DNA from: Halalkalibacterium halodurans
Lineage (GTDB): Bacteria > Bacillota > Bacilli > Bacillales > Bacillaceae_D
Direction of reading: 5' to 3'
NCBI RefSeq assembly: GCF_004376175.1
Contig: NZ_SNUY01000068.1
Coordinates: forward strand, 1,865-21,088
DNA: 19,224 nt
This document shows, piece by piece, positions 2,280 through 19,224 of the stretch (positions within the stretch are counted from its first letter, which is position 1; each line of letters begins with the position of its first letter). The position numbers were made by a program, and so were the translations under genes. The notes under the pieces are model-generated. The model had not been told where the DNA came from. It saw only the letters and a list, made by a program, of their open reading frames with translations, and did not search any database.

Positions 2280-3889
2280 CCTGAATCCGTGATAAAAAGC
2301 AGTGGTTCCATCGATTTTGATAAATCCTAATTTTCTTTCATTTCATTGCTTTTTAAGTTAAATACGTTCGTTTTTGAGTACACCAAATAAAACCTGCTCA
2401 GACATTTTTTTACAGGTCTTATTATCTATTCAGTTTCCTAGACTTATGTCGAAAATGAAAGATACAGACGCTTAAAAGTGGAAAACCAAGGACTATAGTT
2501 CCCGAATTTTAAGTAAACTTTCCGAGAGTGCTTAACAACTTTTGATGCCAGTGTAATTAAGTTCTGGATTACTGTTTTTACACGGCGACGAAAAACCTTT
2601 CTTTTAAGTGGTGCATCTCCTGATTTTAGGCTTTCTTGGCCAATAACCCGAAGGAGATTGTAGGTTAAACACCCAAGATGTAAGATCAATTCATTGGTGG
2701 CAAATTTACCCGAAGGAAAACGTTCTAGGTCTAAATCTGTTTTTAATTCACTGTGGAATTGTTCACAAGTGCCATGTTCGTGATATAGGCCAATTATTTC
2801 CTCTGTTTCATTAGGTAGGCTAGTCCAATAGCTCTCAAACTCAACATCTGGGACTAAGAGGATTTGTCCGTTTTTATCGATTGTCCTTTCCGTTACCTTA
2901 TAAACTTGGCGAATGGCTTTTTTCATTCCCTTTGGAGTTGTTTCTAAAGCACCATAGAATACACGTTTTCCTTCTCGCTCCTGAACGCATTTGCCGAATT
3001 GTTCGGCTACCATGAGCCAGTTTTCGGGCTTTTCACGGCGAGGGTTTCGTTTAATTATAAAATCGGCCTTTTCATTGACACAAACTTTTAGATTTTCGAC
3101 ACTATCGTTTCCTGCGTCCATACGGACTAGTAACGATAGGTCCGTAATCATCCGAGAATAGTTAATACTGTTCTCAAGAAATTTCTCAGTATCCTTTTGA
3201 ACGTGTGTGCTTCCTTCCCGAAGTTCCATATTTACAACGTAGCCTTCTAGACCTAAATAGGAAAAGTTAGGGGAATATCCATCACATCCTTTGTATGTGC
3301 GACTAACCCCTTCTTTCTTGGTATTTGAGTTATCAAATGGCGATACATCAATATCTAAAGGCACGTATGTTTTTTTATCACTAGTTACTGTTGGAGTGAC
3401 AGGAGAATCAAATTGCCGTATTAGTTTAGCCGATTCTTCTAGAACAATGGATTTCCATCCAGTCACCTTGGCAATTTGATCGAGACGTTGCCGTAGTGTG
3501 GGACTTGATGGAACCAATTTAATATCCAATGCACGATAAAAGAAGGGATCGTCTCGAAATTGTTCGATATGGTCGAAATCATTCTTACCTTGACACAATA
3601 GACCCACATAAGAAGTGGTAACATCACCATTAAGAATCTTCGGAGATGACTTAATTTCTGGAACCTTCAAGGATGAAAAACGTTTGTGAAACTTTGTCTT
3701 TGATAAAAGCAAACCTATTAAACCAAGACCTGAATGGGTCGTCAATGTATCATCGGAATTTTCTAATATAAACTTAACCAATTTCTACACCTGCCTGGTG
3801 AAATAAAATTATCAACATAAATCAGCTGATAACATTATTATAACAGGCTTTGGAGGCAATGTTGGAAATGATTTCATCACGGATTCAGG
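2280..3889 (-). mobile_element. IS element, IS1380-like (IS4 superfamily), 1610 bp
   Basis: Terminal inverted repeats: CCTGAATCCGTGAT at 2280-2293 and its exact reverse complement at 3876-3889 (14/14, 17/18 when extended). They are flanked by a 5-bp direct repeat ATATA (2275-2279 and 3890-3894). The element has a single transposase ORF filling the interior and is visibly more AT-rich than its neighbours. Confidence 0.85.
2444..3781 (-). CDS. DDE transposase, IS1380-family-like
   Basis: 445-aa ORF. N-terminal ..LTTHSGLGLIGLLL.., central ..GCDGYSPNF.. and ..RMDAGNDS.., and C-terminal ..EQFHSELKTDLDLERFPSGKFATNELILHLGCLTYNLL.. fit my recollection of IS1380/IS4-type DDE transposases. TTG start preceded by GGCAGGTG. 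Confidence 0.85.
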   Translation of the reverse strand: MVKFILENSDDTLTTHSGLGLIGLLLSKTKFHKRFSSLKVPEIKSSPKILNGDVTTSYVGLLCQGKNDFDHIEQFRDDPFFYRALDIKLVPSSPTLRQRLDQIAKVTGWKSIVLEESAKLIRQFDSPVTPTVTSDKKTYVPLDIDVSPFDNSNTKKEGVSRTYKGCDGYSPNFSYLGLEGYVVNMELREGSTHVQKDTEKFLENSINYSRMITDLSLLVRMDAGNDSVENLKVCVNEKADFIIKRNPRREKPENWLMVAEQFGKCVQEREGKRVFYGALETTPKGMKKAIRQVYKVTERTIDKNGQILLVPDVEFESYWTSLPNETEEIIGLYHEHGTCEQFHSELKTDLDLERFPSGKFATNELILHLGCLTYNLLRVIGQESLKSGDAPLKRKVFRRRVKTVIQNLITLASKVVKHSRKVYLKFGNYSPWFSTFKRLYLSFST

Positions 3890-3918
3890 ATATATTCAAT
3901 CATACATTTTTAGGAGGA

Positions 3919-4068
3919 ATGAACTTGGAAGTTTTTGCAGAGTATTTAAAAGGCATCGATCACCCTGATCACCGCGATCGAACAGAGGAGATATTATCGT
4001 GGGTTGCTGCTACATTCCCAAATTTAGAACCTAAAATGAAGTGGAATACGCCGATGTTTTCCAATCAA
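3919..4068 (+). pseudogene. DUF1801/YdhG-like protein, N-terminal half (50 codons) of a split gene
   Basis: Strong RBS TAGGAGG, then ATG at 3919. Translation [50 protein letters not shown], after which family similarity stops abruptly and the frame runs into unrelated residues to the stop at 4134. The missing half is at 11212-11427. Confidence 0.8.
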
Positions 4069-4163
4069 TCACAACCTTATCCAATAAGAAAAAAGGACAA
4101 ACCACTCAATTTGTCGAAGTTCTTCATCTATTAAACCTCTAACAAACAGCAAAGGAGCCCTAT

Positions 4164-5161
4164 ATGATCGCCAAACCTCGCAAAATCCCTATTCATATAT
4201 TGACAAATTAGAAGCTCTCCTCCGCCGAATCCCCGCTCATCATCCTAAAAAACTTCAAATTGAAGCCGATCTCGCCAAACGAAAAGCCGGTTACAAAGGA
4301 GAGTCCGCCCTCGATTATCATCTCAGCTTTCTGCCGCCAAAAGAGTACATCATTCTCCATGACCTTCGTCTACAAAGCGGCGAATATTTCTTTCAAATTG
4401 ATACACTCATCCTCACTCCAACTTATATCCTCATCATCGAAGTGAAGCATCTCTATGGAACGCTCTCATTTGAACCCGAATTTCAGCAGCTCATCCGCAC
4501 AACTCCTGATGCAGAAGACACATTTCCAGACCCCATTATTCAAGTCCAAAAGCAAGCTAGTCAACTGCGTCAATTTTTAAAGAAACTTAAATTCCCGGAT
4601 ATACCGGTTGAAACGCTGGTTGTGATTACGAATTCGCAAAGTCGTATATCCCTTTCCGACTCCACGACCTATACAAGAAAACATGTAATACGCGACACGG
4701 TATTGGTGAAGCGAATAGAGAAGCTGACCTCGCAATATACCACACTCATTTTCGACCCAAAGCTACTCAGAAAAGCAACTAGGATCTTACTTACCTCACA
4801 TATGCCATCAACATTTGAACCGCTCGAATTTTACCGAATTGAGCTAGACCAACTATTAGGTGGGGTTCACTGCCCGAAATGTGATGCCCTTCCTATGCGG
4901 AGATTACACGGGAAGTGGGTATGTCCAAGCTGCTACTACCAATCAAAATTAGCGCATATAAATAGCTTAGTAGATTATGTGTTACTCGTAAGTGACACGA
5001 TTACGAATAGGGAAGCGTGTGAATTCCTGAAAATAGCGAAAGATACTGCGAGGAGAATGTTAAAATCATTAAAAACTGTAGAGACTGGTACTACGAAGGA
5101 TAAAAAGTTTGAGTTGGTCATAGATAATCTAGTAAAAAGCATAAAAAAAGAAGACATCTAA
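4164..5161 (+). pseudogene. NERD-domain protein with C-terminal Zn-ribbon/HTH, disrupted by a 1-nt frameshift
   Basis: RBS AAAGGAG, then ATG at 4164. MIAKPRKIPIHILTN hits TAG at 4209-4211. The -1 frame continues KLEALLRRIPAHHPKKLQIEADLAKRKAGYKGESALDYHLSFLPPKEYIILHDLRLQSGEYFFQIDTLILTPTYILIIEVKHLYGTL... to 5161. One extra A in the A3 run at 4205-4207 would restore a single ORF. CPKC..CPSC Zn-ribbon near the C-terminus. Confidence 0.8.
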
Positions 5162-5175
5162 TGAAGAAGATGTCT
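5152..5175 (+). terminator. Hairpin overlapping the NERD stop codon
   Basis: AGACATCT (5152-5159), 8-nt loop, AGATGTCT (5168-5175), followed by CCTTATT. Confidence 0.45.
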
Positions 5176-5204
5176 CCTTATTGGAACTACAGAAGAGTGT
5201 AGAC

Positions 5205-5326
5205 GCTTAATTCTAGCAAACGAAACTTTTTATTTAGCAAACAACATAAGCATTCTAGCAAATAATTAAATAATCCAGCGAAAATCATCATTATTTTAGC
5301 AAACCCATACATTTAATGGGAAACAA
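5205..5326 (+). repeat. Phased direct-repeat module 1: five ATTyTAGCAAA-type cores every 20-21 bp plus a TGGGAAAC tail unit
   Basis: AGC(A/G)AA cores start at 5215, 5236, 5257, 5277 and 5298, giving spacings of 21, 21, 20 and 21. The fourth unit is the CCAGCGAAAAT variant. The tail TGGGAAAC begins at 5317. All units are on the same strand. Confidence 0.85.
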
Positions 5327-5354
5327 AAAGGCTGCAGCATCAACTGCAACCTTT
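5327..5354 (-). terminator. Rho-independent terminator of hmp
   Basis: On the minus strand: AAAGGTTGCAG, loop TTGATG, CTGCAGCCTTT, followed by TTGTTTCCC. It lies immediately after the hmp stop. Confidence 0.7.
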
Positions 5355-5362
5355 CCCCCTCA

Positions 5363-6586
5363 CTACTTCGCCTCAACCTCAGCATCCAAACTCGCCGCTG
5401 GTCCAAAGAACTCATAATGTACGCGTTCGTCGCTCACGCCCATCTCAGCTAAATACTGCTTCATTACTCTCATAAATGGAACCGGTCCGCAGAAGTAGAA
5501 GTCAGCCTCAGCCGCCACGTCACCTGCTGCAGCTTTGAGCCATTTCAAATCAATCAAGCCTTTAAGATCAAACGCACCGCGCTCAACATCAGCTGTCGTC
5601 GGATTAGCATACACAGTGTAATTCTTCACCTGATGATTCGCACTAGCCAGCTCTTCCACATGCTTGCCAAATGCTTGCACCGCACCGTTTTCAGCTGCGT
5701 GGATGAAAATTACTTCACGCTCAGGCTGCACTTCAACCAATGTGTTCAGCATGCTCAACATTGGTGTCACGCCGACACCGCCGCCAATGAGGACAACCGG
5801 CTTCTCAGAATCTGTATTTAAAACGAAATCTCCGGCTGGTGCTGTCAGTTCAACTTTATCGCCTTCAACCACTTTTTCATGCAGGTAGCTTGATACGACG
5901 ACATCATTTTCATGTTTTACGCTGATGCGGTAATAATCTTTTCCTGAAGCATCAGATAAGCTGTATTGACGTAGATGAGTATACTCGCTTTCCTCAGGCT
6001 TCACTTTAATCGTCACATATTGGCCCGCTTTAAATTCAGCAATCTTTCCACCGTCATATGGCTGTAAGTAGAAGGAGGTAATCACATCGCTCTCGACTAC
6101 TTTTTTAGCGACGACAAATTCACGGAAATCAGCCCAGCCGCCAGCTTGATTTTCAGCTTCTTCATACATTTCTTTTTCCACGCCGATAAAGGCATTAGCA
6201 ATCACGCCGTACGCCTCGCCCCAGGCAGCAAGAATCTCATCAGTGGCCGCATCGCCCAGCACCTCAACCATCGCATCAAGCAATGTTTCACCGACAATCG
6301 GATAATGCTCAGCTTTAACGCCAAGACTTCTATGCTTGTGACCAATCTGCTTTACAATCGGAATGATCTCTTCTAAGCGGTCGATATGAAGAGCTGCCGC
6401 ATACACTGAGTTTGCCAACGCTGTTTGCTGACGGCCTTGTTTTTGATTCGCATGATTAAATATATTTAATAGTTCAGGGTGACGCTCGAATAATAGTTGA
6501 TAAAAACGAGTCGTAATCTTTGTTCCGTGGACTTCCAATACAGGAACCGTAGACTTTATAATAGAAATAGTTTCTTTAGATAACAT
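5363..6586 (-). CDS. hmp: Flavohemoglobin / nitric oxide dioxygenase
   Basis: N-terminal globin domain (MLSKETISIIKSTVPVLEVHGTKITTRFYQLLFERHPELLNIFN...) fused to an FAD/NAD-binding reductase domain (RQYSLSD, GGGVGVTPMLSML). ATG at 6586 lies 9 nt after AAAGGAG. The ORF-track start at 6592 is an upstream GTG. Confidence 0.93.
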   Translation of the reverse strand: MLSKETISIIKSTVPVLEVHGTKITTRFYQLLFERHPELLNIFNHANQKQGRQQTALANSVYAAALHIDRLEEIIPIVKQIGHKHRSLGVKAEHYPIVGETLLDAMVEVLGDAATDEILAAWGEAYGVIANAFIGVEKEMYEEAENQAGGWADFREFVVAKKVVESDVITSFYLQPYDGGKIAEFKAGQYVTIKVKPEESEYTHLRQYSLSDASGKDYYRISVKHENDVVVSSYLHEKVVEGDKVELTAPAGDFVLNTDSEKPVVLIGGGVGVTPMLSMLNTLVEVQPEREVIFIHAAENGAVQAFGKHVEELASANHQVKNYTVYANPTTADVERGAFDLKGLIDLKWLKAAAGDVAAEADFYFCGPVPFMRVMKQYLAEMGVSDERVHYEFFGPAASLDAEVEAK

Positions 6587-6615
6587 ATGCACTCGCTCCT
6601 TTTCGTCTCTGTTTT

Positions 6616-6633
6616 CTACACTTATAAGTATAG
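6616..6633. promoter_or_regulatory. 18-bp imperfect palindrome overlapping the putative hmp -10 and transcription start (candidate repressor operator)
   Basis: CTACACTTA|TAAGTATAG, with half-sites matching 8 of 9. The minus-strand TATACT -10 candidate (6632-6627) lies inside it. Confidence 0.4.
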
Positions 6634-6653
6634 TCGGCTGAGAAGTGGGAGGG

Positions 6654-6669
6654 TGTGATATACATCACA
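6654..6669. promoter_or_regulatory. Crp/Fnr-family (or Rex-type) operator, TGTGA-N6-TCACA
   Basis: Perfect TGTGATATACATCACA in the divergent hmp / crp-fnr intergenic region. Its centre (6661.5) is about 41.5 nt upstream of the transcription start inferred from the TATACT -10, which is class II activator geometry. Confidence 0.7.
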
Positions 6670-6718
6670 ATAGATGTGACTAACTGGTGAAATCGAACAG
6701 GTGAAAGGAGGGACCTAC

Positions 6719-7420
6719 GTGCTAAATAACGATAAGATTAAGGAATTACTAACTCATTTTCCACTCTTTAAACGGCTAAACGATACGGCGCTCGATCAGA
6801 TTGTTGATATCTCAATATATCGAGAGTGGGGGCGGGGCAGTTATATTTTTATGCAGGATGAGCCGATTGAAAATGTGTATTTCATTTACAGGGGCCGCAT
6901 CAAAATTTATAAAGCTGATAACCGCGGACGCGAGCAGATTGTGGCGATCTTGCGAGAAGGCGAGATGTTTCCTCATGTCGGTTTCTTCAGAAAAGGTGGC
7001 TATCCGGCTTATGCGCAGGTGGTCGATCATGCCCAGCTTGTCGTTATTCCGATTGGTGATTTTGAAGACATTCTCCGCAAAAATCCAGAGCTGTGCATCC
7101 AAGTGTTCCGTGTGCTAGGGGAGAAGATCGTTGACTTGCAAGACCGTCTTGAAGCACAGATCGTCAACAATACATACGAACAAATTATTAAACTGATTAT
7201 CCGCCTCGGAGAAACGAACGGCGAGCCTGCAGAAGACGGAATAACAGTGATGAAATCTGATTACACCAATCAGCAGCTAGCAAAAATGATTGGTACGACG
7301 AGAGAAACGGTTAATCGCACGCTGACCAAGCTCCGTAAAGAAGGCCTATTAAAAGAAAACGAAGGAAGCAGGCTCTGTTTTGTTCGCGAAGAAATGGAGG
7401 GGAAGCTCTACGGCGAGTAG
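6719..7420 (+). CDS. Crp/Fnr-family transcriptional regulator without an Fe-S cysteine cluster
   Basis: cNMP-binding-like beta-barrel (..YIFMQDEPIENVYFIYRGRIKIYK..) plus a C-terminal HTH (QQLAKMIGTTRETVNRTLTKLRKEGLL) with the RE..R recognition motif used by CRP/FNR for TGTGA half-sites. Only two Cys residues in the protein. GTG at 6719 lies 6 nt after AAAGGAGGG. The ORF-track start at 6701 is inside the RBS. Confidence 0.88.
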   Translation: MLNNDKIKELLTHFPLFKRLNDTALDQIVDISIYREWGRGSYIFMQDEPIENVYFIYRGRIKIYKADNRGREQIVAILREGEMFPHVGFFRKGGYPAYAQVVDHAQLVVIPIGDFEDILRKNPELCIQVFRVLGEKIVDLQDRLEAQIVNNTYEQIIKLIIRLGETNGEPAEDGITVMKSDYTNQQLAKMIGTTRETVNRTLTKLRKEGLLKENEGSRLCFVREEMEGKLYGE

Positions 7421-7521
7421 TGTTTCCTCTATAATAAATAAAAAAGACCTAGTCACTCCTATCTTTCGACACCCCGTCCTTCCCCCTTTGTGCAACCGAT
7501 TGCCTATTTTTCAGAAAATTG

Positions 7522-7551
7522 TTGCATTATAAACCAAGACCATGCTACAAT
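7522..7551 (+). promoter_or_regulatory. SigA-type promoter with extended -10 for the amylase gene
   Basis: TTGCAT (7522-7527), 18 nt of spacer, then TGcTACAAT (7543-7551). Confidence 0.5.
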
Positions 7552-7558
7552 AAAAAGC

Positions 7559-7572
7559 AGTAAGCGGTTTCA
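7559..7572 (+). promoter_or_regulatory. Candidate catabolite-responsive element (cre, CcpA site)
   Basis: AGTAAGCGGTTTCA against cre TGWAANCGNTNWCA has one mismatch, at the first T. It sits just downstream of the -10, the position I recall for amyO of B. subtilis amyE. Confidence 0.5.
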
Positions 7573-7609
7573 AGACTGCTATAATTCAAGAAAAAGAGAG
7601 GAGAATAAG

Positions 7610-10285
7610 ATGAAAAAGAGTGTAGTCTTAATCATGGTATTAAGCCTTTTATTATCGCTGTTTGTGCAACCGTTTGCACAAACGAACACCGCGGAGGCGG
7701 CAGGCGACCAAGTATACGATAAGGTTGTGCTGCGCGGGGAATCACCGCTGAGCTGGGACGGGGAGAATCACCCGCTCACATTTGATGAGTCAGAAGGCTT
7801 ATGGAAAAGCGAGCCTGTTACTCTATCCGGCGGAATTCAGTTTGAGTATAAATTCGTCATGGATAACGAGTGGCTCGCTGGTGACAATTTGCGATTCCAG
7901 GTGCCGCAGACAGGTGACTATGAATTTTATTTTGACCCAAGCGACCAGCGTAAAGTTGACGTAAGGCCAGCTACCGAGTACGACGGCTCGATTACGCTCC
8001 AATTAACGGTGCCAGAAGAAACACCAGATTGGGCCGTACCGACAGTCGCAACGAGCAATAACAGCTTCAATTACAGCGTGACACCGCTAGAGCGGGAAGG
8101 CGAGACGTTCACCGTTACGTTAAATGGCCAGGCGGGGGAGGAGCTAGAGTACCGCTACGGGCTAGGTGATTCGAAGTATCGTGAAGTCATTGAGGCTAAC
8201 CGCACCGCAACGTTTACTGAAGAAGGCACCGTTGTAGAAGACACGGTGACAGAATGGACAGGCCTTCCTGTGGCTAAAAATGTCTCTCACAACTTTAACC
8301 ACAACCCGTTCATCCCATCGCCTAATGATGATGTTGAGATTACAGTAGAAGTGGAGCATTACGGCCCGATTGATGAGGGCGGAATCTACTTTACAACAGA
8401 TGGAAGCACTCCGGCTGGCGCACGCGGGGAAGCAAGTTCTGGTGAGTTCTCTCCATTAGAGGTAGTCGAAACAAAAACAGAAAATAACTTGCAGCGCTCT
8501 ACTTTAAAAGGAGTGATCCCTAAGCAAGCAGACAGCACGCCGGTGAAATATGTCGTTGACGTGTGGGCAGCTGACGGCGAGGGGTCTCAATATGCCGATA
8601 CAAACAGCTTAACAAGCGCAGAAGCAACTGAGTTTGCCTACTATGTTGAGAATTACAGCTCACCAGACTGGGCGAAGGATGCAGTGATTTATCATATTTT
8701 TGTCGATCGATTTTATGATGGCAATCCAGATAATAATTTCGGGGTAGACCCAAGCCTTCCATTAGAAGAAGCATTAAAAGACTGGATGGGCGGAGATCTT
8801 GAAGGTGTACTTGCAAAGCTTGATTACATTGAAGAGCTTGGGGTAGATACGATTTGGCTGTCGCCAGTATTTGAAGGTCCATATTCGCACGGTTATCACC
8901 CGACAGACTTTATGGGGATTGATCCGAATTTCGGCACGCTTGAGGTATTAAAAGAATTAATTCATGAAGCGCATGATCGCGATATGAAAGTCATTTATGA
9001 TTTTGTCCCGAATCACACTTCAAGCGAGCATCCGTATTTCCAAGATGCGCTTGCAAACGGGGAAGACAGCCCGTATTACGACTGGTATACGTTCTATGAA
9101 GACGGCACTTACGAGACATTTTACGGCATTGAAGAGCTGCCGCAATTTAATAACGACCATCCGGAAGCACGTGATTATATGTTAAATGAGGTTGTTCCAT
9201 TTTGGTTAGAAGAGCTTGAATTTGACGGCTTGCGCTTAGATTATGCCAAAGGACCGAGCTACAGCTTTTGGGTCGATTTCCGTGATAAAGTGAAATCGAT
9301 TGATCCTGACATGTACGTATTTGGAGAGGTGTGGGATAGCCGCGAGAAAATCTCGAGCTATGCTGGAAAGCTTGATGGTTCACTGGACTTTGGTTTCCAC
9401 GATACATTTAAAGGAACATTTGCTTTTGACGGTTCGATGCAGTCTGTCGTGAACTATGTCGAAGAAAACGAAGCCGTGTACCACCCGGAATACATTATGA
9501 CGACATTCCTAGATAACCATGACTTGCCGCGCTTCTTATATGAAGCAGGCGGTAACACAGACAAGCTGAAGTTGGCATCATTCACGCAATTTATGCTGCC
9601 GGGCTCACCTGTTATCTATTACGGAACAGAAGTCGGTCTCTCGCAAAGTGCGAACCATAATGAGTTTAACGACTGGAAAGACCGCTGGTACCGCGAGTTC
9701 ATGATTTGGAATGAAGAAGAGCAGGATCAAGAATTGCTCAAACATTACCAAGAAATTATCGAGCTGCGCCAAAACCACTCAGCTCTTCGCACCGGTGACT
9801 TCCATGCGCATTCTGCAACGCGCGATGCTCTTCTGTTTGAGCGCAGTAATGAGGGAGAGCGTCTAATTGTTGCTGTTAATAAAGGAGCAGAAGCCGTGCT
9901 CGCATTAGATGAAGAGCTTGAGTTAGAGAATCTAGTAACAGGAGAGAGAATGACGGGTGACGAGTTGACTGTAGGAGCGAACTCATTTGCTGTGTATCAA
10001 GTTGTTGAGGAAGAAAAGGACATTGAACATGTCGTGCTGCGAGGCGTTCATGCTCAGGACATTGCTCTATCTTATGACGAGGCAGCAGGTGTGTGGCGTT
10101 CTGAAGGCATCCACTTGAAAAATAAGCAGAAGGTTACGTTCGAGTATGTGATAAACGGAGCGGAATCGACTAGTGAATTAACATTTACGCCTGATCGAGG
10201 CGGGAAATTCGAATTTATCTTTAATCCGGTGGAGCCAGAGCAAGTAACGGTGCTCCATCCGAGTGACAAGCGAGGTCAGAAATAA
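7610..10285 (+). CDS. Secreted multi-domain GH13 alpha-amylase-family enzyme (891 aa)
   Basis: RBS AGAGAGGAG, then ATG at 7610. Signal peptide MKKSVVLIMVLSLLLSLFVQPFAQTNTAEA|AG. GH13 conserved regions DFVPNHTS, GLRLDYAKG, VFGEVWD and FLDNHDLPRF. N- and C-terminal beta-sandwich, CBM-like modules. The ORF-track start at 7490 has no RBS and precedes the signal peptide. Confidence 0.9.
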   Translation: MKKSVVLIMVLSLLLSLFVQPFAQTNTAEAAGDQVYDKVVLRGESPLSWDGENHPLTFDESEGLWKSEPVTLSGGIQFEYKFVMDNEWLAGDNLRFQVPQTGDYEFYFDPSDQRKVDVRPATEYDGSITLQLTVPEETPDWAVPTVATSNNSFNYSVTPLEREGETFTVTLNGQAGEELEYRYGLGDSKYREVIEANRTATFTEEGTVVEDTVTEWTGLPVAKNVSHNFNHNPFIPSPNDDVEITVEVEHYGPIDEGGIYFTTDGSTPAGARGEASSGEFSPLEVVETKTENNLQRSTLKGVIPKQADSTPVKYVVDVWAADGEGSQYADTNSLTSAEATEFAYYVENYSSPDWAKDAVIYHIFVDRFYDGNPDNNFGVDPSLPLEEALKDWMGGDLEGVLAKLDYIEELGVDTIWLSPVFEGPYSHGYHPTDFMGIDPNFGTLEVLKELIHEAHDRDMKVIYDFVPNHTSSEHPYFQDALANGEDSPYYDWYTFYEDGTYETFYGIEELPQFNNDHPEARDYMLNEVVPFWLEELEFDGLRLDYAKGPSYSFWVDFRDKVKSIDPDMYVFGEVWDSREKISSYAGKLDGSLDFGFHDTFKGTFAFDGSMQSVVNYVEENEAVYHPEYIMTTFLDNHDLPRFLYEAGGNTDKLKLASFTQFMLPGSPVIYYGTEVGLSQSANHNEFNDWKDRWYREFMIWNEEEQDQELLKHYQEIIELRQNHSALRTGDFHAHSATRDALLFERSNEGERLIVAVNKGAEAVLALDEELELENLVTGERMTGDELTVGANSFAVYQVVEEEKDIEHVVLRGVHAQDIALSYDEAAGVWRSEGIHLKNKQKVTFEYVINGAESTSELTFTPDRGGKFEFIFNPVEPEQVTVLHPSDKRGQK

Positions 10286-10290
10286 GAAAA

Positions 10291-10314
10291 AGTGCGCTGC
10301 GGCGCACTTTTTTT
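10291..10314 (+). terminator. Rho-independent terminator of the amylase gene
   Basis: AGTGCGC, loop TGCG, GCGCACT, followed by TTTTTT. Confidence 0.85.
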
Positions 10315-10325
10315 GTGTTGGGATA

Positions 10326-10455
10326 AGTCGATTTTAGCAATATAGGTGGTTATTTTAGCAAATTGAAGAGCGATTCCAGCAAATCAGCCATTTAACTAGC
10401 GAAAATCCAAATCATTTTAGCAAGCGCAGCAATATATTGGAAACTACTAATCTGC
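10326..10455 (+). repeat. Phased direct-repeat module 2, collinear with module 1
   Basis: AGC cores start at 10336, 10357, 10378, 10398 and 10419. The spacings 21, 21, 20, 21 are identical to module 1, and the fourth unit is again the AGCGAAAAT variant. Tail ATATTGGAAACTAC at 10434-10447. Confidence 0.85.
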
Positions 10456-10463
10456 TCAAGCCG

Positions 10464-10590
10464 GCCGTAATTCGAACAGACACCTCGATAATTCAAACAA
10501 ACAAATAGATTATTTGAACAAACCCCTCATTAATTCGAACAACTTTCCACTTAATTCGAACAAACGCAACTAAATATTGGAAACTAGCTC
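10464..10590 (+). repeat. Phased direct-repeat module 3: TAATTCGAACAAAC-type cores every 21 bp plus a TGGAAAC tail
   Basis: (C/T)GAACA cores start at 10473, 10494, 10515, 10536 and 10557, all spaced 21 bp. Tail ATATTGGAAACTAG at 10574-10587, 140 bp after the module 2 tail. Confidence 0.85.
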
Positions 10591-11086: not shown

Positions 11087-11211
11087 ATGGCTTTTATACC
11101 GATCTTCATTTTTGTCATTTTTATTTTGGTGCTTGGAATCAGAGAGAAGATCATTCACAAACGAAACATCGACTCCATTCCCGTACGCGTCAACATTAAT
11201 GGAATCAGAGG
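11087..11211 (+). pseudogene. 5' stub (42 codons) of a poly-gamma-glutamate synthase PgsB/CapB-like gene
   Basis: RBS AAGAGG, then ATG at 11087. [42 protein letters not shown] matches my recollection of the B. subtilis PgsB N-terminus (..[27 protein letters not shown]..). Similarity ends exactly at the junction with the DUF1801 C-half. The frame then runs 13 unrelated codons to TGA at 11252-11254. Confidence 0.65.
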
Positions 11212-11427
11212 GGTACATTTATCATTGGCTTCTCCACCTCGAAACATCATTTGAGCGTTTCACCCGAAGAAATAGGCATTTCGCAATTTGCCGATGCTAT
11301 TGCACAAGCGGGCTACAGCGCGACCAAAGGCTTGTTTCGAATTCCAGTCCATTACGAACTGCTTAAACAAATGATTGAGTTTAATATTCAGGATAAGGAA
11401 GGCTATTCCACTTTTTGGCGTAAATAA
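11212..11427 (+). pseudogene. DUF1801/YdhG-like protein, C-terminal half (72 codons) of the split gene
   Basis: [71 protein letters not shown]. It has no start codon or RBS of its own and is on the same strand as the N-half at 3919-4068. Confidence 0.8.
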
Positions 11428-11504
11428 AAGGTATCCATGTTGTCGACTTCCTTCAGAGTTCCGCGATAAAATTTGACTGCAAACTTTCTGAGAGTGTTCA
11501 CAAA

Positions 11505-11537
11505 GAAGCCTTGTTTCGTTTGTTGAAACGAGGCTTC
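11505..11537. terminator. 13-bp stem hairpin downstream of the DUF1801 C-half
   Basis: GAAGCCTTGTTTC, loop GTTTGTT, GAAACGAGGCTTC (one G-U pair). There is no clear T-run on the plus strand. Confidence 0.4.
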
Positions 11538-11662
11538 CCGTAATCAATACAAGGTTTATAGCCGCTCGTGTGAAGGATCGTCTGCACTATCATCTTAAAT
11601 AGATACATTCTACCCCCGATTATTTCACAAGAAGTGTAAATTGGGGTTTTGCACCTGAAAAT

Positions 11663-12811
11663 TTGGCATCAAATGACATGCTAGGGGGCGACCGCTATGC
11701 AGGCATACCAGCTGCCCTATTAACGCTCGGTTCAGCTGCGGCTGCCTTTTTTGTTGGTCGATTATCCGATCGGTTCGGTCGACGAATGGGGCTAGGAACT
11801 GGCTTCTTGTTAGGGGGGGTCGGTGCGATCATCGTTATCTATGCGGCCGTAAGTAACAGCGTCATCCTTCTCTTTCTTGGACTGCTTCTAAACGGTGCAG
11901 GAAACGCCACCAACCTGCAGGCGCGTTATGCAGGGACTGATTTAGCAAAACCGAAACAACGAGCAACCGCCATTAGTATGGCGATGGTCGCGACCACTTT
12001 TGGTGCCGTTGCTGGTCCAAATCTAGTGAATGTGATGGGAGATGTAGCTGATTCCTTCGGTGTTCCAACTCTCGCTGGACCGTTTATATTAGCAACGGTC
12101 GCTTATTTACTAGCTGGATTCATCTTTTTTGTGTTTCTCCGTCCAGATCCATTTCTCGTTGCAAAGCAATCGTCAAACAAGAGGCTGATCACGAAAAACA
12201 TAACCATTCAGCCAAAACAACAGAGAAGCAACTTATGTCAACCATCGCAAAACGGGGGATCATTGTTGGAACGACGGTCATGGTCTTAACCCAAATGGTC
12301 ATGGTAGCGATTATGACGATGACACCCGTCCATATGCAACACCACGGGCACGGGCTACAAGAGATCGGTCTTGTCATTAGCATTCACATTGGAGCCATGT
12401 ACCTTCCATCTCTTGTGACAGGTGTTCTCGTCGATAAGCTCGGACGAACAACAATGTCGGTAACCTCTGGCGTCATTTTACTTAGTGCAAGGACTGCTCG
12501 CTGCGGTTGCCCCTGGTGATTCGTTAGCCGTTTTGATCATCGCACTCGCCTTGTTAGGACTCGGATGGAATTTAGGGTTAATCAGTGGAACAGCTATGAT
12601 TGTCGATGCAACCCATCCTGCAACCCGAGCGAAAACGCAAGGAACAATTGATGTTCTCGTCGGACTGTCGGGCGCAGCAGGAGGGGCTCTGTCCGGTATG
12701 GTCGTCGCCCAATCTAGCTATGCTACTTTGTCGCTTGCAGGAGGGACACTTGCCCTTGCTCTCGTCCCGGTCATGATTTGGTATTTGAAGAAAAATGCAA
12801 GAGCATCATAA
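11663..12811 (+). pseudogene. MFS transporter, 5'-truncated with two frameshifts
   Basis: Three consecutive overlapping ORFs (11663-12289, 12235-12519, 12485-12811) together read as one 12-TM-type MFS protein, with motif GRLSDRFGRR between TM2 and TM3. Frame changes occur near 12165 and near 12488 (extra A in AGTGCAAGGACTG). There is no TM1 or start codon, and an in-frame stop sits at 11600-11602. Confidence 0.75.
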
Positions 12812-12822
12812 ACCTAACTATG

Positions 12823-12861
12823 AAAAAACATGTTTTGTTACACTCGCAAAACATGTTTTTT
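12823..12861. terminator. Bidirectional rho-independent terminator
   Basis: AAAACATGTTTTG (12825-12837), 9-nt loop, CAAAACATGTTTT (12847-12859). The 13-bp stem is perfect, with A/T runs on both sides, and lies between convergent genes. Confidence 0.8.
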
Positions 12862-12922
12862 CTAGATTAACGACAGATGCCGCGATTCCATTAAGAAATT
12901 AAAAAAAGAGAGGGAGTTCCTT

Positions 12923-13267
12923 TTATGCAAAAAACAAAAAAGCTGTCATTCCAAACACGAGCCAGTGGGCAGCATCAAACAAATAAAGAAGATGTCGCTT
13001 CGAGTCTCTCTTATAAATCCATTGTTCGACTGAAAAAAGGAGATTAACAAGCACACCGATAAACGGGAACAGTAAAAAGAAGTTTACGGTTGGATAGATA
13101 AGAGGGACAAGGGCACCAACGGCGATCACAACATAAAAAAGAATCGCAAACTCTTTCCTTTCATGTTTATAGCTCCAATTCTTTTTTGAGATTTGTAGCT
13201 TTGTCTTTAAAAAGAACCTCAACATAATCCACAAACTGAGCATAATTAATAAAACAATTACTCTCAT
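12923..13267 (-). CDS. Small integral membrane protein (114 aa, about 4 TM), possibly DUF4181-like
   Basis: ORF with RBS AGGAG 8 nt upstream of the ATG. Hydrophobic segments run throughout. The family assignment is tentative. Confidence 0.55.
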   Translation of the reverse strand: MRVIVLLIMLSLWIMLRFFLKTKLQISKKNWSYKHERKEFAILFYVVIAVGALVPLIYPTVNFFLLFPFIGVLVNLLFSVEQWIYKRDSKRHLLYLFDAAHWLVFGMTAFLFFA

Positions 13268-13409
13268 CTCATTGGCTCCTATCTTGGTTTTGGAAATGTA
13301 TCTTAATGTAAGTATATCGTAGCTCCATCCTTTGAACAGGGGGGAAGTAACATCTCATAAAAGATAGGGAACTTTTTCAAAATTTATGTCTAAAAAATTA
13401 TGTCGAATT

Positions 13410-13425
13410 TGTGATATTTTTCACG
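13410..13425. promoter_or_regulatory. Second TGTGA-N6-TCAC(G) box (Crp/Fnr- or Rex-type) upstream of qoxA
   Basis: TTTGTGATATTTTTCACGTAA, 15/16 to the TGTGA-N6-TCACA palindrome. It is flanked by TT..AA as in Rex operators and lies 134 nt upstream of the qoxA start. Confidence 0.45.
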
Positions 13426-13558
13426 TAACCGTTTTAATTTCGGGCACTTTTTTTTCGAAAATGATAGGATGAGTACACATCCATAATGGCTCAGGATTTC
13501 GTCAACCGTTTTAGCTCTACATATTCATTATTTTATTGTCAAAGAAAGGTGATTACAG

Positions 13559-14548
13559 TTGAGTACACCATCGATCATTTTCAAGTGGATGGCTCTAGCG
13601 ATGGTCGGTCTCGTATTAACTGGTTGTGGTAATTTAACTGTCCTAGACCCACAAGGTCCAGTGGCTGAACAGCAAAGCGATTTGATCATGTTATCCATTT
13701 GGTTCATGATCTTTATTGTGTTAGTCGTATTCGTACTGCTGACAGTTATGCTCGTTAAATACCGTGACCGCGGGAACAATGACAATTACGACCCGTCAAT
13801 CGAGGGGAGCCACAAGCTCGAAATTATTTGGACTATCGTGCCAATCATCATCGTTACCATTCTTTCGATACCGACCGTGACGACCATTTATAGTTTAGAA
13901 GAGGCGCCAGAGGTGTCTGAGGTAAATGCCGAAAACATCCAAGTTGAGCCGCTTGTCATTCATGCGACGAGCGTGAACTGGAAATGGATTTTCAGTTATC
14001 CTGAAGAAAACATCGAGACTGTCAATTATGTTAACATTCCCGTTGATCGTCCCGTGCTGTTTAAATTAACATCTGCTGATTCGATGGCATCTTTTTGGGT
14101 ACCGCATCTCGGTGGACAAAAATACAGTATGGCCGGCATGGAAACGGAATTGTATTTGATGTCTCATAATACAGGTACTTTTAACGGTCGCAACTCAAAT
14201 TTCACAGGTGAAGGATTTGCTGAGCATCGCTTTGTTGTCAACGCCCTCACCGCAAGAGATTATGATGCTTGGGTCGAAGAAGTTCAGACGGAAGCTCCGC
14301 CATTATCGGAAGAAGAGTACGCACATCTGATGGTTCCTGGCCATGCAGAGGAGATGACATTTTCTTCTACGCATCTTGAGTTTGTCAATCATGCGGATGA
14401 TCCCACATACTCACTTGAGAAACGAGCAGAACTCGGATATGAGGCATTAAATCCGCACTCAAGGGAAGGAAAAGCATATGAAATGCCTACACTTAGTCAA
14501 CCGATCGACACGACTAGAACGTATGAAGTCGAATTGGATGATGAGTGA
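13559..14548 (+). CDS. qoxA: Cytochrome aa3 quinol oxidase subunit II
   Basis: Lipoprotein signal (LVLTGC). LDPQGPVAEQQSDLIMLSIWFMIFIV, VKYRDR and SADSMASFWVPHLGGQKYSMAGM closely parallel my recollection of B. subtilis QoxA. TTG start after AAAGGTGA. Confidence 0.93.
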   Translation: MSTPSIIFKWMALAMVGLVLTGCGNLTVLDPQGPVAEQQSDLIMLSIWFMIFIVLVVFVLLTVMLVKYRDRGNNDNYDPSIEGSHKLEIIWTIVPIIIVTILSIPTVTTIYSLEEAPEVSEVNAENIQVEPLVIHATSVNWKWIFSYPEENIETVNYVNIPVDRPVLFKLTSADSMASFWVPHLGGQKYSMAGMETELYLMSHNTGTFNGRNSNFTGEGFAEHRFVVNALTARDYDAWVEEVQTEAPPLSEEEYAHLMVPGHAEEMTFSSTHLEFVNHADDPTYSLEKRAELGYEALNPHSREGKAYEMPTLSQPIDTTRTYEVELDDE

Positions 14549-14581
14549 TGGTGCAAACAGCGGAAGAGAGGAGTTTTACCG

Positions 14582-16525
14582 TTGAGATGGGATGAATTTA
14601 TTGTAACGGGTGACCCGTTAATCCTTGCTGCGCAAATTTCTATCGGACTATCCGTGATTTTGACAGTGGTCGCCCTTACGTACTTCAAAAAATGGAAAGT
14701 GCTTTGGACAGACTGGATCACAACGGTTGACCATAAGAAAATCGGCATTATGTATATCGCGTGCGCCTTGTTAATGCTATTCCGTGGTGGTGTGGACGCC
14801 GTCATGATGCGCATGCAGTTGGCTGCTCCAAACATGACGTTTTTAAATAGCCAACATTACAATGAAATCTTTACGACCCATGGCACAATCATGATTATTT
14901 TCATGGCGATGCCGTTTTTGATCGGCTTAATGAACGTTGTCGTTCCATTGCAAATTGGGGCGCGCGACGTTGCTTTTCCGTTTTTGAACAATTTAAGTTT
15001 CTGGACGTTCTTTTTCGGAATGGCCCTTTTTAATATTTCCTTTATTATCGGGGGCTCCCCTGCTGCAGGTTGGACGTCCTACTTTCCGCTTGCCTCAAAC
15101 GACTTCAGTCCTGGGGTCGGACAGAACTTTTATGCGCTCGGACTGCAACTTTCCGGAATAGGAACTCTGGCAACAGGAATTAACTTTCTCGTCACGATCT
15201 TAAAAATGCGTACAAAAGGCATGACACTCATGAAAATGCCGATGTTTACATGGACGGTTCTCATTACATCGCTCATTATCGTCCTCGCATTCCCGGTATT
15301 AACGGTCGCTCTGGCGATGATGACGTTTGATCGGTTATTCGGCACAGCCTTCTTTACGTTACAAGGACAAGGACTTGATATGCTTTGGGCGAACCTGTTC
15401 TGGATTTGGGGTCACCCTGAAGTGTATATTGTCATCCTGCCGGCTTTCGGGATTTTCTCGGATATTATTTCGACCTTTGCCCGTAAGAAGCTGTTTGGCT
15501 ACAACGCGATGGTCGCTTCAATTGTTGTGATTTCCTTTTTAAGCTTCCTTGTATGGGTGCACCATTTCTTTACGATGGGGAATAGTGCAGCTGTGAACTC
15601 CTTTTTCTCAATCACAACGATGGCCATTTCGATCCCAACCGGCGTGAAAATATTTAACTGGATTTTCACGCTCCATAAAGGAAGGATTCGCTTTACCGTA
15701 CCGATGCTTTGGTCCATTGGGTTTATCCCGAACTTTGTCATTGGTGGGGTAACAGGGGTCATGCTCGCGATGGCCGCAGCTGATTACCAATATCACAACA
15801 CGTATTTTCTCGTGTCACATTTCCACTATGTACTCATAGCTGGAACCGTATTTGCCTGCTTTGCTGGTTTGATTTACTGGTATCCGAAAATGTTCGGGCA
15901 CCGTTTAAATGAAACGATAGGTAAATGGGTATTCTGGGTTTTCATGATCGGCTTTAACGTATGTTTCTTCCCGCAGTATTTCCTAGGACTTGATGGAATG
16001 CCGCGCCGGATTTACACGTATTTAGAGTCGGACAACTGGTTCTCGCTTAATGCAATTTCGACGGCAGGTGCCTTTATGATGGCCATCGGATTTGCCCTAT
16101 TTGTCTACAACATTTATTACAGCTGGCGTTATGAAAAGCGAGAAACGACGGGAGACCCTTGGGACGGTCGTTCGCTTGAATGGGCAACATCGTCTGCAGT
16201 ACCACCATTTTATAACTTTGCAAAGTTACCGGAAGTCACTGATCGTGATGCCTTTTGGACGATGAAAGAGAAGGGCATTCGTCTACATGCCGATACGAAT
16301 TATGAGAAAGTCCATATGCCAAGCAACACATGGCTTGGGTTTGTGATGAGCTTTATAATGTTTATTGCTAGCTTTGCCCTCGTCTTTAGCTGGTTTCCAC
16401 TAGCGATCATTAGTGGCATCGGGATCTTTATTTGCATGATCATTCGTTCGTTTGATTACGATGAGGGGTATTACGTAAGCGCAAAAGAAATTCAAGAAAT
16501 CGAAAGCAAAGCGAAGGGGGCGTAG
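14582..16525 (+). CDS. qoxB: Cytochrome aa3 quinol oxidase subunit I
   Basis: 647 aa, heme-copper oxidase subunit [46 protein letters not shown] and [13 protein letters not shown] are near-identical to my recollection of B. subtilis QoxB. Confidence 0.96.
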
Positions 16526-16528
16526 CGA

Positions 16529-17143
16529 GTGGCGGCACATGAAACGATAAATCCGAATCAACCTCTTGAATATCAATCAGCTGAAGGCCGCAACAATATT
16601 TTAGGCTTCTGGATCTTTCTCGGTGCTGAATTCGCTTTGTTTGCAACATTGTTTGCTTCTTATTTCGTCCTTGTGGATCGCAATGCTGATGCTGTCCGAG
16701 CAGCAGACTTGTTTGATTTGAACCTTGTGCTCATCATGACATTTTTGCTGTTAACAAGTTCGTTCACATGCGGGCTCGCGATTCACGAGATGAGAGCCGG
16801 GCGAATGAACCGGATGTTCGTCTGGATTGGCTGGACTCTCCTTTTAGGTCTTGGCTTCGTCGGCTTTGAGATCTACGAATTTGTCCATTATGCCCATGAA
16901 GGAGCAACACTATCAGCAAGTGCCCATTGGTCTGCGTTTTTCCTTCTCCTCGGGACACACGGCTTGCACGTATCCATTGGAATTGGCTGGATTGTGCTTC
17001 TCGTCATCCAAATGAAAAAGCGCGGATTAACGCCACGAACAACATCGAAGTTTTTTATCGCAAGCCTTTATTGGCACTTTTTAGATGTCGTTTGGATTAT
17101 GATTTTCACAGGCGTATACTTGCTTGGAATGGAGTGGATGTAA
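16529..17143 (+). CDS. qoxC: Cytochrome aa3 quinol oxidase subunit III
   Basis: 204 aa. LEYQSAEGRNNILGFWIFLGAEFALFATLFA and SLYWHFLDVVWIMIFTGVYL. GTG start 8 nt after GAAGGGGG. Confidence 0.93.
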   Translation: MAAHETINPNQPLEYQSAEGRNNILGFWIFLGAEFALFATLFASYFVLVDRNADAVRAADLFDLNLVLIMTFLLLTSSFTCGLAIHEMRAGRMNRMFVWIGWTLLLGLGFVGFEIYEFVHYAHEGATLSASAHWSAFFLLLGTHGLHVSIGIGWIVLLVIQMKKRGLTPRTTSKFFIASLYWHFLDVVWIMIFTGVYLLGMEWM

Positions 17144-17545
17144 ATGGCGCATGAAAAAGAAACAACGGCCACTCACAGTCACAGCTTTCCTTGGATGCAC
17201 GTTGTTGGCTTTGCCCTTTCGATTATTTTTACGCTTTTGGCCGTATGGGTTATGAGTCAGACGCATTGGTCATGGAATGTTCGTGTGATCGTCATTTTCA
17301 TCTTTGCCTTCATCCAAATGACGGTCCAGCTTCATATGTTCATGCATATGGGGGAAGGGAAGTCAGGAACCGTACAGATCGGTCATACGTGGTTTGCCAT
17401 CGCCATTGCGGTTATTATTGTCGTTGGCTCTTATCTCGTATTAACGACAGGGCACCTTCATACCGATCATGAAAATCACTTGGATCATGGAGGTCATGAA
17501 AATCACATGAACCACGGGGAGCACGAAGATCACTCAGGACACTAA
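17144..17545 (+). CDS. qoxD: Cytochrome aa3 quinol oxidase subunit IV
   Basis: 133 aa. HSHSFPWMHVVGFALSIIFTLLAVW, three TM segments and a His-rich tail. The ATG directly abuts the qoxC stop. Confidence 0.88.
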   Translation: MAHEKETTATHSHSFPWMHVVGFALSIIFTLLAVWVMSQTHWSWNVRVIVIFIFAFIQMTVQLHMFMHMGEGKSGTVQIGHTWFAIAIAVIIVVGSYLVLTTGHLHTDHENHLDHGGHENHMNHGEHEDHSGH

Positions 17546-17550
17546 ACATG

Positions 17551-17584
17551 AAATGACCTCGGTATTAGCCGAGGTCATTTTTTC
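17551..17584. terminator. Bidirectional rho-independent terminator
   Basis: AAATGACCTCGG (17551-17562), loop TATTAG, CCGAGGTCATTT (17569-17580), followed by TTTT. It lies between convergent genes. Confidence 0.85.
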
Positions 17585-17592
17585 TATAAACC

Positions 17593-17874
17593 CTAGTCCA
17601 TTGATTCCGTGAATGTGCGAGATTTTGGACGAATGTGCGGATATGCATACAATACAAGAGCTGCAAAATGGGCAATAATAACGTTTACAAAAAAGGCGGT
17701 AAGAAAAACGGAGTGATGAAGGTCAAATAAAAACCCTTCAAACATGTGACTTAAAGCCAACAGCCACATGATAATAATAAACGGGATACTCGTTAACGCT
17801 ATTTTTCGATGTTCAAGCCACAAAAATAATGGTGTGGCGCTTGCAACTAGCATATAAGCAAAAAACAAATCCAT
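17593..17874 (-). CDS. Small integral membrane protein (about 93 aa, 3-4 TM), hypothetical
   Basis: ORF with AAAGGAG 9 nt upstream of the ATG at 17874. The ORF-track TTG at 17880 is too close to the RBS. I recognise no family. Confidence 0.55.
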   Translation of the reverse strand: MDLFFAYMLVASATPLFLWLEHRKIALTSIPFIIIMWLLALSHMFEGFLFDLHHSVFLTAFFVNVIIAHFAALVLYAYPHIRPKSRTFTESMD

Positions 17875-17911
17875 AGACAACTACTCCTTTCAGGCTTGAG
17901 CACACGAACAA

Positions 17912-17968
17912 ATTGTGTCTAGATTGTGTCTTTAGCTAACTGTATCTTATCACAAATTTGTCACAATT
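17912..17968. promoter_or_regulatory. Four-copy ATTGTG(T/A)C motif, two direct plus two inverted, each pair 11 bp apart (candidate operator)
   Basis: ATTGTGTCT at 17912-17920 and 17923-17931. Reverse-orientation copies ATCACAAAT at 17949-17957 and GTCACAATT at 17960-17968. The region lies just upstream of the 17874 (-) gene. Confidence 0.4.
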
Positions 17969-19086: not shown

Positions 19087-19224
19087 GGTGAAGAATAAGG
19101 TAGTGTCAAAAGTTCTATGAAAAACTAGCACGGTTCATACTACCTACCATTTATTAGGTGGAAATGCCACGCTATCGCTCTTGACAAACACACCAATGGT
19201 TTATTCAGAGGTCAATCAAGGGCG

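Follow-up and report, generated by a model that had tools for sequence, protein, structure and literature searches.

Phased repeat arrays of Bacillaceae as the probable DNA-binding sites of a family of stand-alone NERD nucleases

Introduction

Bacillus genomes contain tandem repeats of 20–21 nt with a constant size and a variable sequence, a class called enigmatic in the only survey of it that we found (Subirana and Messeguer 2021; PMC8161180). Members of the simplex/muralis group have many of these repeats and B. subtilis has none; the survey assigned the repeats neither a function nor a partner protein, suggesting a nucleoid protein or transcription into small RNAs as possibilities (PMC8161180). 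Here we deal with three modules of phased short repeats, M1–M3, in a stretch of 19,224 nt from Halalkalibacterium halodurans (NCBI RefSeq assembly GCF_004376175.1, contig NZ_SNUY01000068.1, positions 1,865 to 21,088 of the forward strand; hereafter the window), and present comparative evidence that they are probably the cognate DNA-binding arrays of a family of stand-alone Bacillaceae nucleases combining an N-terminal NERD domain, a zinc (Zn) ribbon and a C-terminal winged helix-turn-helix (wHTH). A first-pass annotation of the window, made from the letters alone, had seen no recognisable class in the modules, a view that has to be revised. Like the published repeats, M1–M3 are non-coding arrays with a 20–21-bp period (377 of 414 unit-to-unit intervals at related loci are 20 or 21 bp); the published sequences are specific to a species or family with a short signal in each repeat, and here, too, the core word differs from locus to locus; and the TCGCGG signal of B. 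weihaiensis is the TTTCGCGGATATA word group of our loci. By these sequence features the modules belong to the constant-size Bacillus repeat class, and the new result is the partner gene: the arrays studied here go with a single gene family, and their words with the recognition helix of its protein. Our literature search found no paper linking NERD proteins to these repeats.

Plasmid iterons of the P1, F, RK2 and pPS10 type are direct repeats of 17–22 bp, with a period of about two helical turns, beside an autoregulated Rep gene, and their specificities co-evolve into groups. At our loci, about five direct repeats with a two-turn period likewise adjoin the gene of the predicted binder, but that binder is a PD-(D/E)xK nuclease with a single wHTH instead of a WH1-WH2 Rep protein (Pfam shows the NERD domain only), the NERD loci are chromosomal (tblastn found a homologue in one of 72,556 plasmids, a record of 571 kb), and nothing indicates a role in replication. 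In the partition centromeres ParR-parC (four 20-bp repeats in pSK41) and TubR-tubC, upstream repeats are bound cooperatively by a ribbon-helix-helix or winged-helix adaptor that forms a filament, and the operon is autoregulated. Phased direct repeats beside the gene of a winged-helix protein are common to these systems and our loci, and cooperative binding would be a further likeness; however, no motor NTPase gene (ParM, TubZ or ParA) is adjacent (in 80 loci no neighbouring gene family is conserved within 3 kb of the NERD gene, the most recurrent one being present in at most 10), and the binder has a conserved nuclease domain and is encoded on the chromosome, with several paralogues per genome.

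The ends of Tn7, with its TnsB sites, and of Mu carry multiple subterminal transposase sites, inverted at the two ends and enclosing a DDE transposase gene, and TnsA is a PD-(D/E)xK enzyme. Our arrays resemble such ends in having several sites of about 20 bp at a period of about 21–22 bp, a distinct terminal sequence and an associated restriction-enzyme-like nuclease, and, in Alkalihalophilus and Bacillus sp. FJAT-45037 only, an inverted arrangement. They differ in that most loci have one array or direct arrays, in that their position is fixed and the variation allelic, and in that no DDE transposase gene lies between the arrays, NERD being the sole gene there. Type III toxin-antitoxin systems (ToxIN) have a tandem repeat array directly upstream of a nuclease gene, as do many NERD loci. 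Their repeats keep their sequence over the whole unit and fold into a defined RNA, and a terminator stands before the toxin gene, but the repeats here are conserved over half their length and give no structure signal, their orientation can flip, no terminator separates array and gene in the three loci L016, L059 and L089, and the protein has DNA-binding domains. The transposon-end and type III toxin-antitoxin readings thus fail on orientation, gene content and RNA features. The first-pass annotation had compared the modules with iterons, centromere repeats and transposase end-binding sites; the idea of a protein-binding array survives, while membership in any of those families fails on their defining features. 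CRISPR arrays, repetitive extragenic palindromes and miniature inverted-repeat transposable elements were rejected as well, since their unit size and anatomy do not fit.

Three phased modules in the window

Reading of the window sequence confirmed three repeat modules, all on the + strand, each made of five 12-bp cores at a step of 21 bp (20 bp once in M1 and once in M2), followed by a conserved end unit, ATATTGGAAAC:

M1, 5208–5325, + strand: five ATT(C/T)TAGCAAAC cores and end unit TTTAATGGGAAAC; predicted downstream cognate array of the NERD gene
M1 cores, ATTCTAGCAAAC-type, + strand: 5210–5221, 5231–5242, 5252–5263, 5272–5283, 5293–5304; spacing 21, 21, 20, 21
M2, 10330–10447, + strand: orphan array with the word and the 21/21/20/21 spacing of M1; end unit ATATATTGGAAAC
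M2 cores, ATT(C/T)TAGCAAAC, + strand: 10331–10342, 10352–10363, 10373–10384, 10393–10404, 10414–10425
M3, 10466–10590, + strand: orphan array with the word TAATTCGAACAAAC; end unit AAATATTGGAAAC
M3 cores, ATTCGAACAAAC-type, + strand: 10470–10481, 10491–10502, 10512–10523, 10533–10544, 10554–10565; strict 21-bp step
Sixth (end) units, + strand: 5312–5324 TTTAATGGGAAAC, 10432–10444 ATATATTGGAAAC, 10572–10584 AAATATTGGAAAC; nearly identical across the three modules

M1 and M2 have the fourth unit, AGCGAAAAT, in common, and their word is identical to that of M3 at 10 of 12 positions. Cores are conserved and spacers are not, about 12 of the 21 positions being kept per unit. The units sit exactly where the first-pass annotation had put them, its coordinates being those of the AGC or CGA within each core (AGC at 5215, 5236, 5257, 5277 and 5298 in M1 and at 10336, 10357, 10378, 10398 and 10419 in M2).

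The pattern AGCAA-N16-AGCAA has four matches in the window, all in M1 and M2, against 0.09 expected (none of 200 shuffles reaches four), and TTNRAACA-N13-TTNRAACA has four, all in M3, against 0.00 expected. A search with the single word TTNTAGCAAA, allowing one mismatch, gave 13 matches against 8.8 expected, which is not significant alone; the significance is confined to the phased pattern. Because Tandem Repeats Finder detects only M3 in the window, we wrote a word-independent periodicity scanner (five units at 21±1 bp, with at least 9 of 14 columns identical in at least four of the five units). In the 19-kb window it marks the sites of M1 (score 11 of 14), M2 (9–10) and M3 (14) and no others; the best score of block-shuffled 11-kb loci is at most 10. 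M2 is borderline by this score alone and is backed by its orthologues in other strains. Rfam gave no match in the window at gathering score, folding of M1–M3 on both strands detected no structured-RNA signal (z-scores of −1.4 to +0.8 relative to shuffled sequences), and a blastn search with the DNA of M2 and M3 found no match among 72,556 plasmids or 50,697 phages.

On the minus strand, at 5293–5322 and 10414–10443, the fifth core and the sixth unit together resemble a promoter (TTCCCA or TTTCCA, 18 nt, TG-n-TAAAAT), from which transcription would run back through the array; in the inverted upstream arrays of Alkalihalophilus the direction of this site points at the NERD gene.

Arrays accompany NERD genes across Bacillaceae

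The only candidate partner that the first-pass annotation could name was a NERD-Zn-ribbon-HTH gene ending 44 bp before M1, and it had proposed a search for the arrays in related Bacillaceae. With an alignment of 14 homologues we fetched 80 genomic loci, one genome per species, and called an array when at least 11 of 14 columns were conserved, a threshold that block-shuffled loci never reached (null maximum 10). Phased arrays recur beside the NERD homologues at 75 of the 80 loci, always within 400 bp of the gene (76 loci at threshold 10), so the suspected partner gained firm ground. The array is upstream in 58 loci and downstream in 24, seven of them having arrays on both sides (51 upstream only, 17 downstream only). 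None of the 80 loci has an array inside the NERD gene, 200-bp bins beyond about 2 kb from it contain practically no arrays, and the remaining ~9 kb of each locus is almost free of them. Metagenomic relatives with 34–46% identity carry an array in 31 of 46 cases, several of the others having too little flank, and distant metagenomic NERD homologues with 25–29% identity, serving as a negative control, in none of 11. From the sequence data the association of arrays with NERD genes can be considered established. In Bacillus sp. FJAT-45037 (locus L009) a second, distant NERD-like gene (13686–14549, 299 aa, 28% identity, no Pfam match on record) has no adjoining array.

Arrays most often have 4–6 well-matching units, and 35 of the 58 upstream arrays end 68–125 bp before the start codon, the others 11–46 bp or 131–548 bp before it. 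The orthologous loci of A. marmarensis, A. pseudofirmus, Alkalihalophilus sp. As8PL and Bacillus sp. FJAT-45037 carry modules alike in anatomy, with five phased units and a ATATGGAAA-type end unit, and with other words (TATAAAC(G/A)AA, TTCGAACA, TTCGTCGGAATAA or TT(T/C)CGCGCGAA). There, a NERD gene encoding 332 aa is closely flanked by an array on either side. Alkalihalophilus and FJAT-45037 have their upstream array in the opposite orientation to the gene, most genera in the same orientation.

Several loci display array amplification. Cytobacillus firmus (L065, 3850–5000) has four tandem copies of a ~215-bp segment comprising the array, the promoter and the first ~12 NERD codons, placed before a complete copy, and multi-module amplification is seen also in L026 (five contiguous five-unit modules), L083, L050, L037, L052, L077 and L082. 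The two arrays on both sides of one NERD gene in Fictibacillus terranigra (L012, 4748–4880 and 6001–6130) are near-identical, spacers included, suggesting a recent duplication or gene conversion between them. Locus L009 contains three orphan arrays (943–1070, 3418–3520 and 11246–11360) at most 10 kb from its NERD gene, all with the word TT(T/C)CGCGCGAA; pairs of them share spacers at about 85% identity, indicating that arrays can be copied locally.

The core word covaries with the recognition helix

Each locus has a word of its own, built of a T-rich part, 4–7 variable G+C-rich bases and an ATA(A/T)A-like end. Where arrays stand on both sides of one gene they use the same word (11 of 11 loci), and paralogues within one genome use different words (10 of 10 genomes). 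In a partial Mantel test on 74 loci, controlled for the identity of the N-terminal domain, core similarity correlated with wHTH identity (r=0.19) and with the recognition segment (r=0.23), with 0 of 2000 permutations reaching the observed value in either case (p≤0.0005). The Zn ribbon, the linker and the N-terminal domain (controlled for the wHTH) gave no significant correlation in the same 74 loci. Particular helix motifs also recur with particular words in distantly related proteins: AKK or VKK with GACCGA, ASR or VSR with TTGCAAA, and K(R/H) with CGCCGATA. That each gene has a private word, and that this word covaries with the wHTH, can be taken as established at the sequence level.

Allele classes and orphan arrays in Alkalihalophilus

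The NERD gene of Alkalihalophilus occupies one syntenic locus, between adh_short and hmp, and occurs there in three allele classes, each with its own flanking word:

P0121 and L008: TATAAAC
P0122, P0123 and the window: TAGCAAA
P0124 and P0125: CGAACAA

The DNA of L008 and L092 is 80–100% identical along the locus except for the upstream array and for the part from nucleotide +849 (codon ~283) on, and this divergent 3' part comprises the recognition helix, the wing and the downstream array. In L092 the array orthologous to M1 and the array on the other side of the gene have one word. The upstream array thus switches together with the recognition helix across ~900 bp of conserved sequence, which argues for functional matching and not mere linkage.

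Orthologues of M2 are found in L006, L008, L090 (where two units, 42 bp, are deleted), L092 and L094, and those of M3 in L006, L008, L090 and L092, with L094 down to one unit (84 bp deleted). All Alkalihalophilus strains examined have orthologues of M2 and M3, whatever NERD allele they carry. The word of M2 matches the TAGCAAA class and that of M3 the CGAACAA class (P0124 and P0125). Their orthology across Alkalihalophilus species means that M2 and M3 are old, in keeping with the first-pass statement that the modules are not a recent duplication; its other proposal, a protein-binding array on one helix face, is backed by the comparative evidence above, with core words covarying with the recognition helix.

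The NERD protein family and its promoter

In an AF2 model of the protein (pLDDT 93) the N-terminal domain is alpha/beta, and the model also shows a CxxC...CxxC Zn ribbon and, at residues 263–316, a winged helix. Residues D79, E92-x-K94, Q77 and Q108 are invariant or nearly so across homologues, which fits an active PD-(D/E)xK nuclease as predicted from sequence. Foldseek searches of the PDB gave weak PD-(D/E)xK matches with TM scores of 0.2–0.3 (Bax1, Can2, the R2 endonuclease domain, McrC and Hjc-type nucleases), and a PDB sequence search with the family profile returned nothing below E=0.09, that is, no solved relative by sequence. With the PADLOC and NCBIfam defence-system models, the NERD domain produced sub-threshold matches only, to PglW and MADS6. 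The family comprises 1129 clusters at 50% identity (E≤1e-30), and tblastn found no homologue in the phage collection. Paralogues can be clustered: three lie within ~130 kb on contig NZ_QGTW01000004.1 of Cytobacillus oceanisediminis (L016, L057 and L061), and the two of Alkalihalophilus sp. As8PL (L093 and L094) are 12.6 kb apart, flanking a uxu/dct operon.

The SigH promoter motif consists of AGGA and GAAT separated by 17–18 nt (PMC12456013). AGGA-N17-18-GAAT occurs 55–61 bp (about 57 bp) before the NERD start codon in 34 of the 80 loci, against 0.5 expected, and upstream arrays mostly end near the −35 element of this SigH-type promoter, at 70–110 bp from the start codon. The window has a variant of it:

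Sigma-H-like promoter of the window NERD gene, 4094–4119, + strand: AGGA-N18-GAAG, with the −10 element one base off GAAT

With such a promoter the gene may be expressed as cells pass into stationary phase, sporulation or competence, and the position of the arrays suggests that the NERD gene may be autoregulated by its bound array.

A model of array binding and what weighs against it

The modules are thus best explained, with a good measure of probability, as cognate binding arrays of the NERD proteins. One wHTH would bind each core, the recognition helix reading the variable G+C-rich 4–7 bp and the wing or the Zn ribbon reading the conserved A/T-rich flank. As the period equals two helical turns, five or six protomers could align head to tail and cooperatively on one face of the DNA. 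The resulting filament would autoregulate the NERD gene beside its own sigma-H-type promoter and would set nuclease domains at defined chromosomal addresses at the entry into stationary phase, sporulation or competence. In the window, M1 would be the downstream array of the local NERD gene, M2 an orphan site of the same specificity and M3 an orphan site whose specificity is that of a different allele class of this gene. The nuclease may also act at the arrays, and the biological role could be regulation only, that of a selfish homing or recombination element, or self/kin recognition.

Several points weigh against this interpretation. The entire case is comparative, and the covariation coefficients are modest (r of about 0.2). 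Linkage alone could hold the wHTH and the downstream array together, although it could not account for the switch of the upstream array on the far side of a conserved N-terminal domain. Array orientation relative to the NERD gene is not fixed, and some arrays (M2, M3 and the three in L009) are orphans with no adjacent gene; strain As8PL keeps an M2 orthologue though both of its NERD genes go with a different word. Sequence comparison gives no more than a trend for constraint on orphan cores, 19% of columns being variable in cores against 31% in spacers (p=0.052). Finally, with its local NERD gene frameshifted, this genome may carry the arrays as relics.

Alternative explanations

We consider it unlikely that the arrays instead mark the ends of a mobile or selfish element, or sites at which it recombines, with the NERD protein as its transposase, recombinase or homing enzyme. 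The five cores would then be subterminal sites beside a terminal unit (ATATTGGAAAC) read by the conserved catalytic part of the protein, and the orphan arrays would be footprints or landing sites. Such an element would explain why the arrays of Alkalihalophilus and FJAT-45037 form an inverted pair with the conserved sixth unit outermost, and why this unit is constant across allele classes and species while the cores differ; the several and in part clustered paralogues per genome (C. oceanisediminis, As8PL), the near-identical L012 arrays, the tandem copies in L065, and the large and fast-diversifying family (1129 clusters) are also in its favour. It is contradicted by the single array at most loci, by the direct orientation of paired arrays outside the alkaliphile clade, and by the Alkalihalophilus gene itself, which stays at one syntenic locus in all strains and varies in allele, not in position. 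Homologues are absent from phages and nearly so from plasmids, and identical multi-copy insertions or target duplications were not seen, although no systematic search for them was made.

The location of upstream arrays near the −35 element, together with the T-rich and A-rich flanks of each unit at a two-turn period, would also suit a promoter-upstream architecture that serves a host factor such as Spo0A, or intrinsically curved DNA, hitch-hiking with the gene. Some arrays (L012 and L017) even contain TGTCGAA, which we take to match the Spo0A box. This explanation is nevertheless improbable: paralogues in one cell have different words, as do alleles at one locus, so that no single host factor could read them all, and the words track the recognition helix of the NERD gene's own product, which bent DNA cannot explain; downstream and orphan arrays would be left unexplained as well. 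A Spo0A-box reading of the TTCG-containing cores was rejected, the words being too diverse.

Very improbable, in our estimate, is a function of the arrays as RNA, be it a ToxI-like repeat antitoxin that the NERD protein processes or binds, or a small RNA that contains the repeats and sponges a protein. The repeats do stand immediately before a nuclease gene and mostly share its orientation, and small-RNA transcription was raised for the repeat class (PMC8161180). However, neither Rfam nor folding supports a structured RNA, the pattern of ~12 conserved positions in 21 with free spacers is unlike that of type III antitoxin repeats, upstream arrays are inverted in one clade, many arrays lie downstream of terminators, and the protein part that covaries with the word is a winged helix, next to a nuclease fold of the PD-(D/E)xK type. 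Neutral tandem duplication, with the modules as functionless slippage products, is already disfavoured and hardly credible: whole-unit changes, the 42-bp deletion in M2 of L090, the 84-bp deletion in M3 of L094 and the higher-order amplification in L026 and L083 recall slippage, but a 20–21-bp period and a size of 4–6 units recur beside ~100 independent genes whose words are unrelated, conservation is confined to the cores and leaves the spacers free, and the word covaries with the protein.

Genomic context in the window

The order of features in the window is IS4 transposase, DUF1801 fragment, NERD gene, M1, hmp (− strand), fnr-like gene, alpha-amylase gene, M2, M3 and capB fragment, with the following elements next to the modules:

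NERD-Zn-ribbon-winged-helix gene, 4164–5161, + strand: Pfam NERD match; frameshifted
Hairpin terminator, 5148–5179, no strand given (the scan lists the − strand): after the NERD gene, just before M1
Terminator hairpin of the alpha-amylase gene, 10287–10312, no strand given: immediately 5' of M2
IS4 DDE transposase gene, 2444–3781: a separate insertion, not between arrays

M1 sits between the convergent terminators of the NERD gene and hmp, and M2 and M3 come after the amylase terminator; tblastn found no NERD remnant near M2 and M3. The NERD gene is 90% identical to P0122 and 88% to P0123 by tblastn, and its wHTH falls in the TAGCAAA allele class. It is inactivated by a single 2-bp insertion, AT at 4195–4196 (codon 11–12), the sole indel relative to L092, and is otherwise open to the stop codon. 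The insertion lies within a CATATATTG run, and the frameshift could represent a very recent pseudogene, slippage in a short AT run or a sequencing error. The gene has no upstream array: homology to other strains ends ~75 bp before the ATG, where the DUF1801 fragment and the IS4 element begin, and by this comparison the upstream array is lost beside them.

Hmp of the window is 96% identical to that of A. marmarensis, and its qox part matches Logan/JGI contigs at 99% identity. The short interval between NERD and hmp is a strain-variable hot spot (L006 11342–13692, L090 11329–13620, L092 11164–12207), which contains SLH and DUF418 genes, Zn-ribbon and TcaA-like genes, an SLH gene alone or nothing; it has no insert in the window and in L008. 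Locus L092 has no amylase gene.

The window is also rich in gene remnants, namely a gerAC fragment (1951–2229), the DUF1801 fragment (3850–4134), the IS4 element and capB/pgsB (poly-gamma-glutamate synthase, 11088–11211), of which only the first ~40 codons remain. About 460 bp of unassigned sequence (11212–11674) separate the capB/pgsB remnant from a gene for a major facilitator superfamily (MFS) transporter that is cut 190 bp into its coding sequence and split into open reading frames at 11663–12289, 12235–12519 and 12485–12811; the gene is intact in L001 (444 aa, with marR upstream). The part of the window from 11675 to 19099 is 99% identical to contigs L001–L005 (cf. L001 4522–11956), and homology breaks abruptly at both ends.

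Implications for the NERD family

Repeats called enigmatic gain a candidate protein partner and a testable mechanism, and a large uncharacterised protein family comes into view, which combines a conserved nuclease site with DNA addresses of its own and a stationary-phase promoter. The many helix–word combinations found in nature would constitute a ready-made specificity code for a winged-helix scaffold, and the three allele classes at one Alkalihalophilus locus a natural swap experiment. A wider scheme, possible in the light of the sequence comparisons and yet rather doubtful, would make the NERD-array modules a new sequence-addressed nuclease system of spore-forming Bacillaceae: a sigma-H-timed PD-(D/E)xK nuclease would form a polar filament on its private array and act, at that array or from it, as a selfish homing or gene-conversion device or in self/kin recognition during competence or sporulation, the wHTH and the arrays would co-switch under conflict-type diversifying selection, and the nuclease would have its targets on the chromosome in orphan arrays, M2 and M3 among them. 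If the nuclease does act at the arrays, the family could thus represent a new selfish or self-recognition system tied to competence or sporulation.

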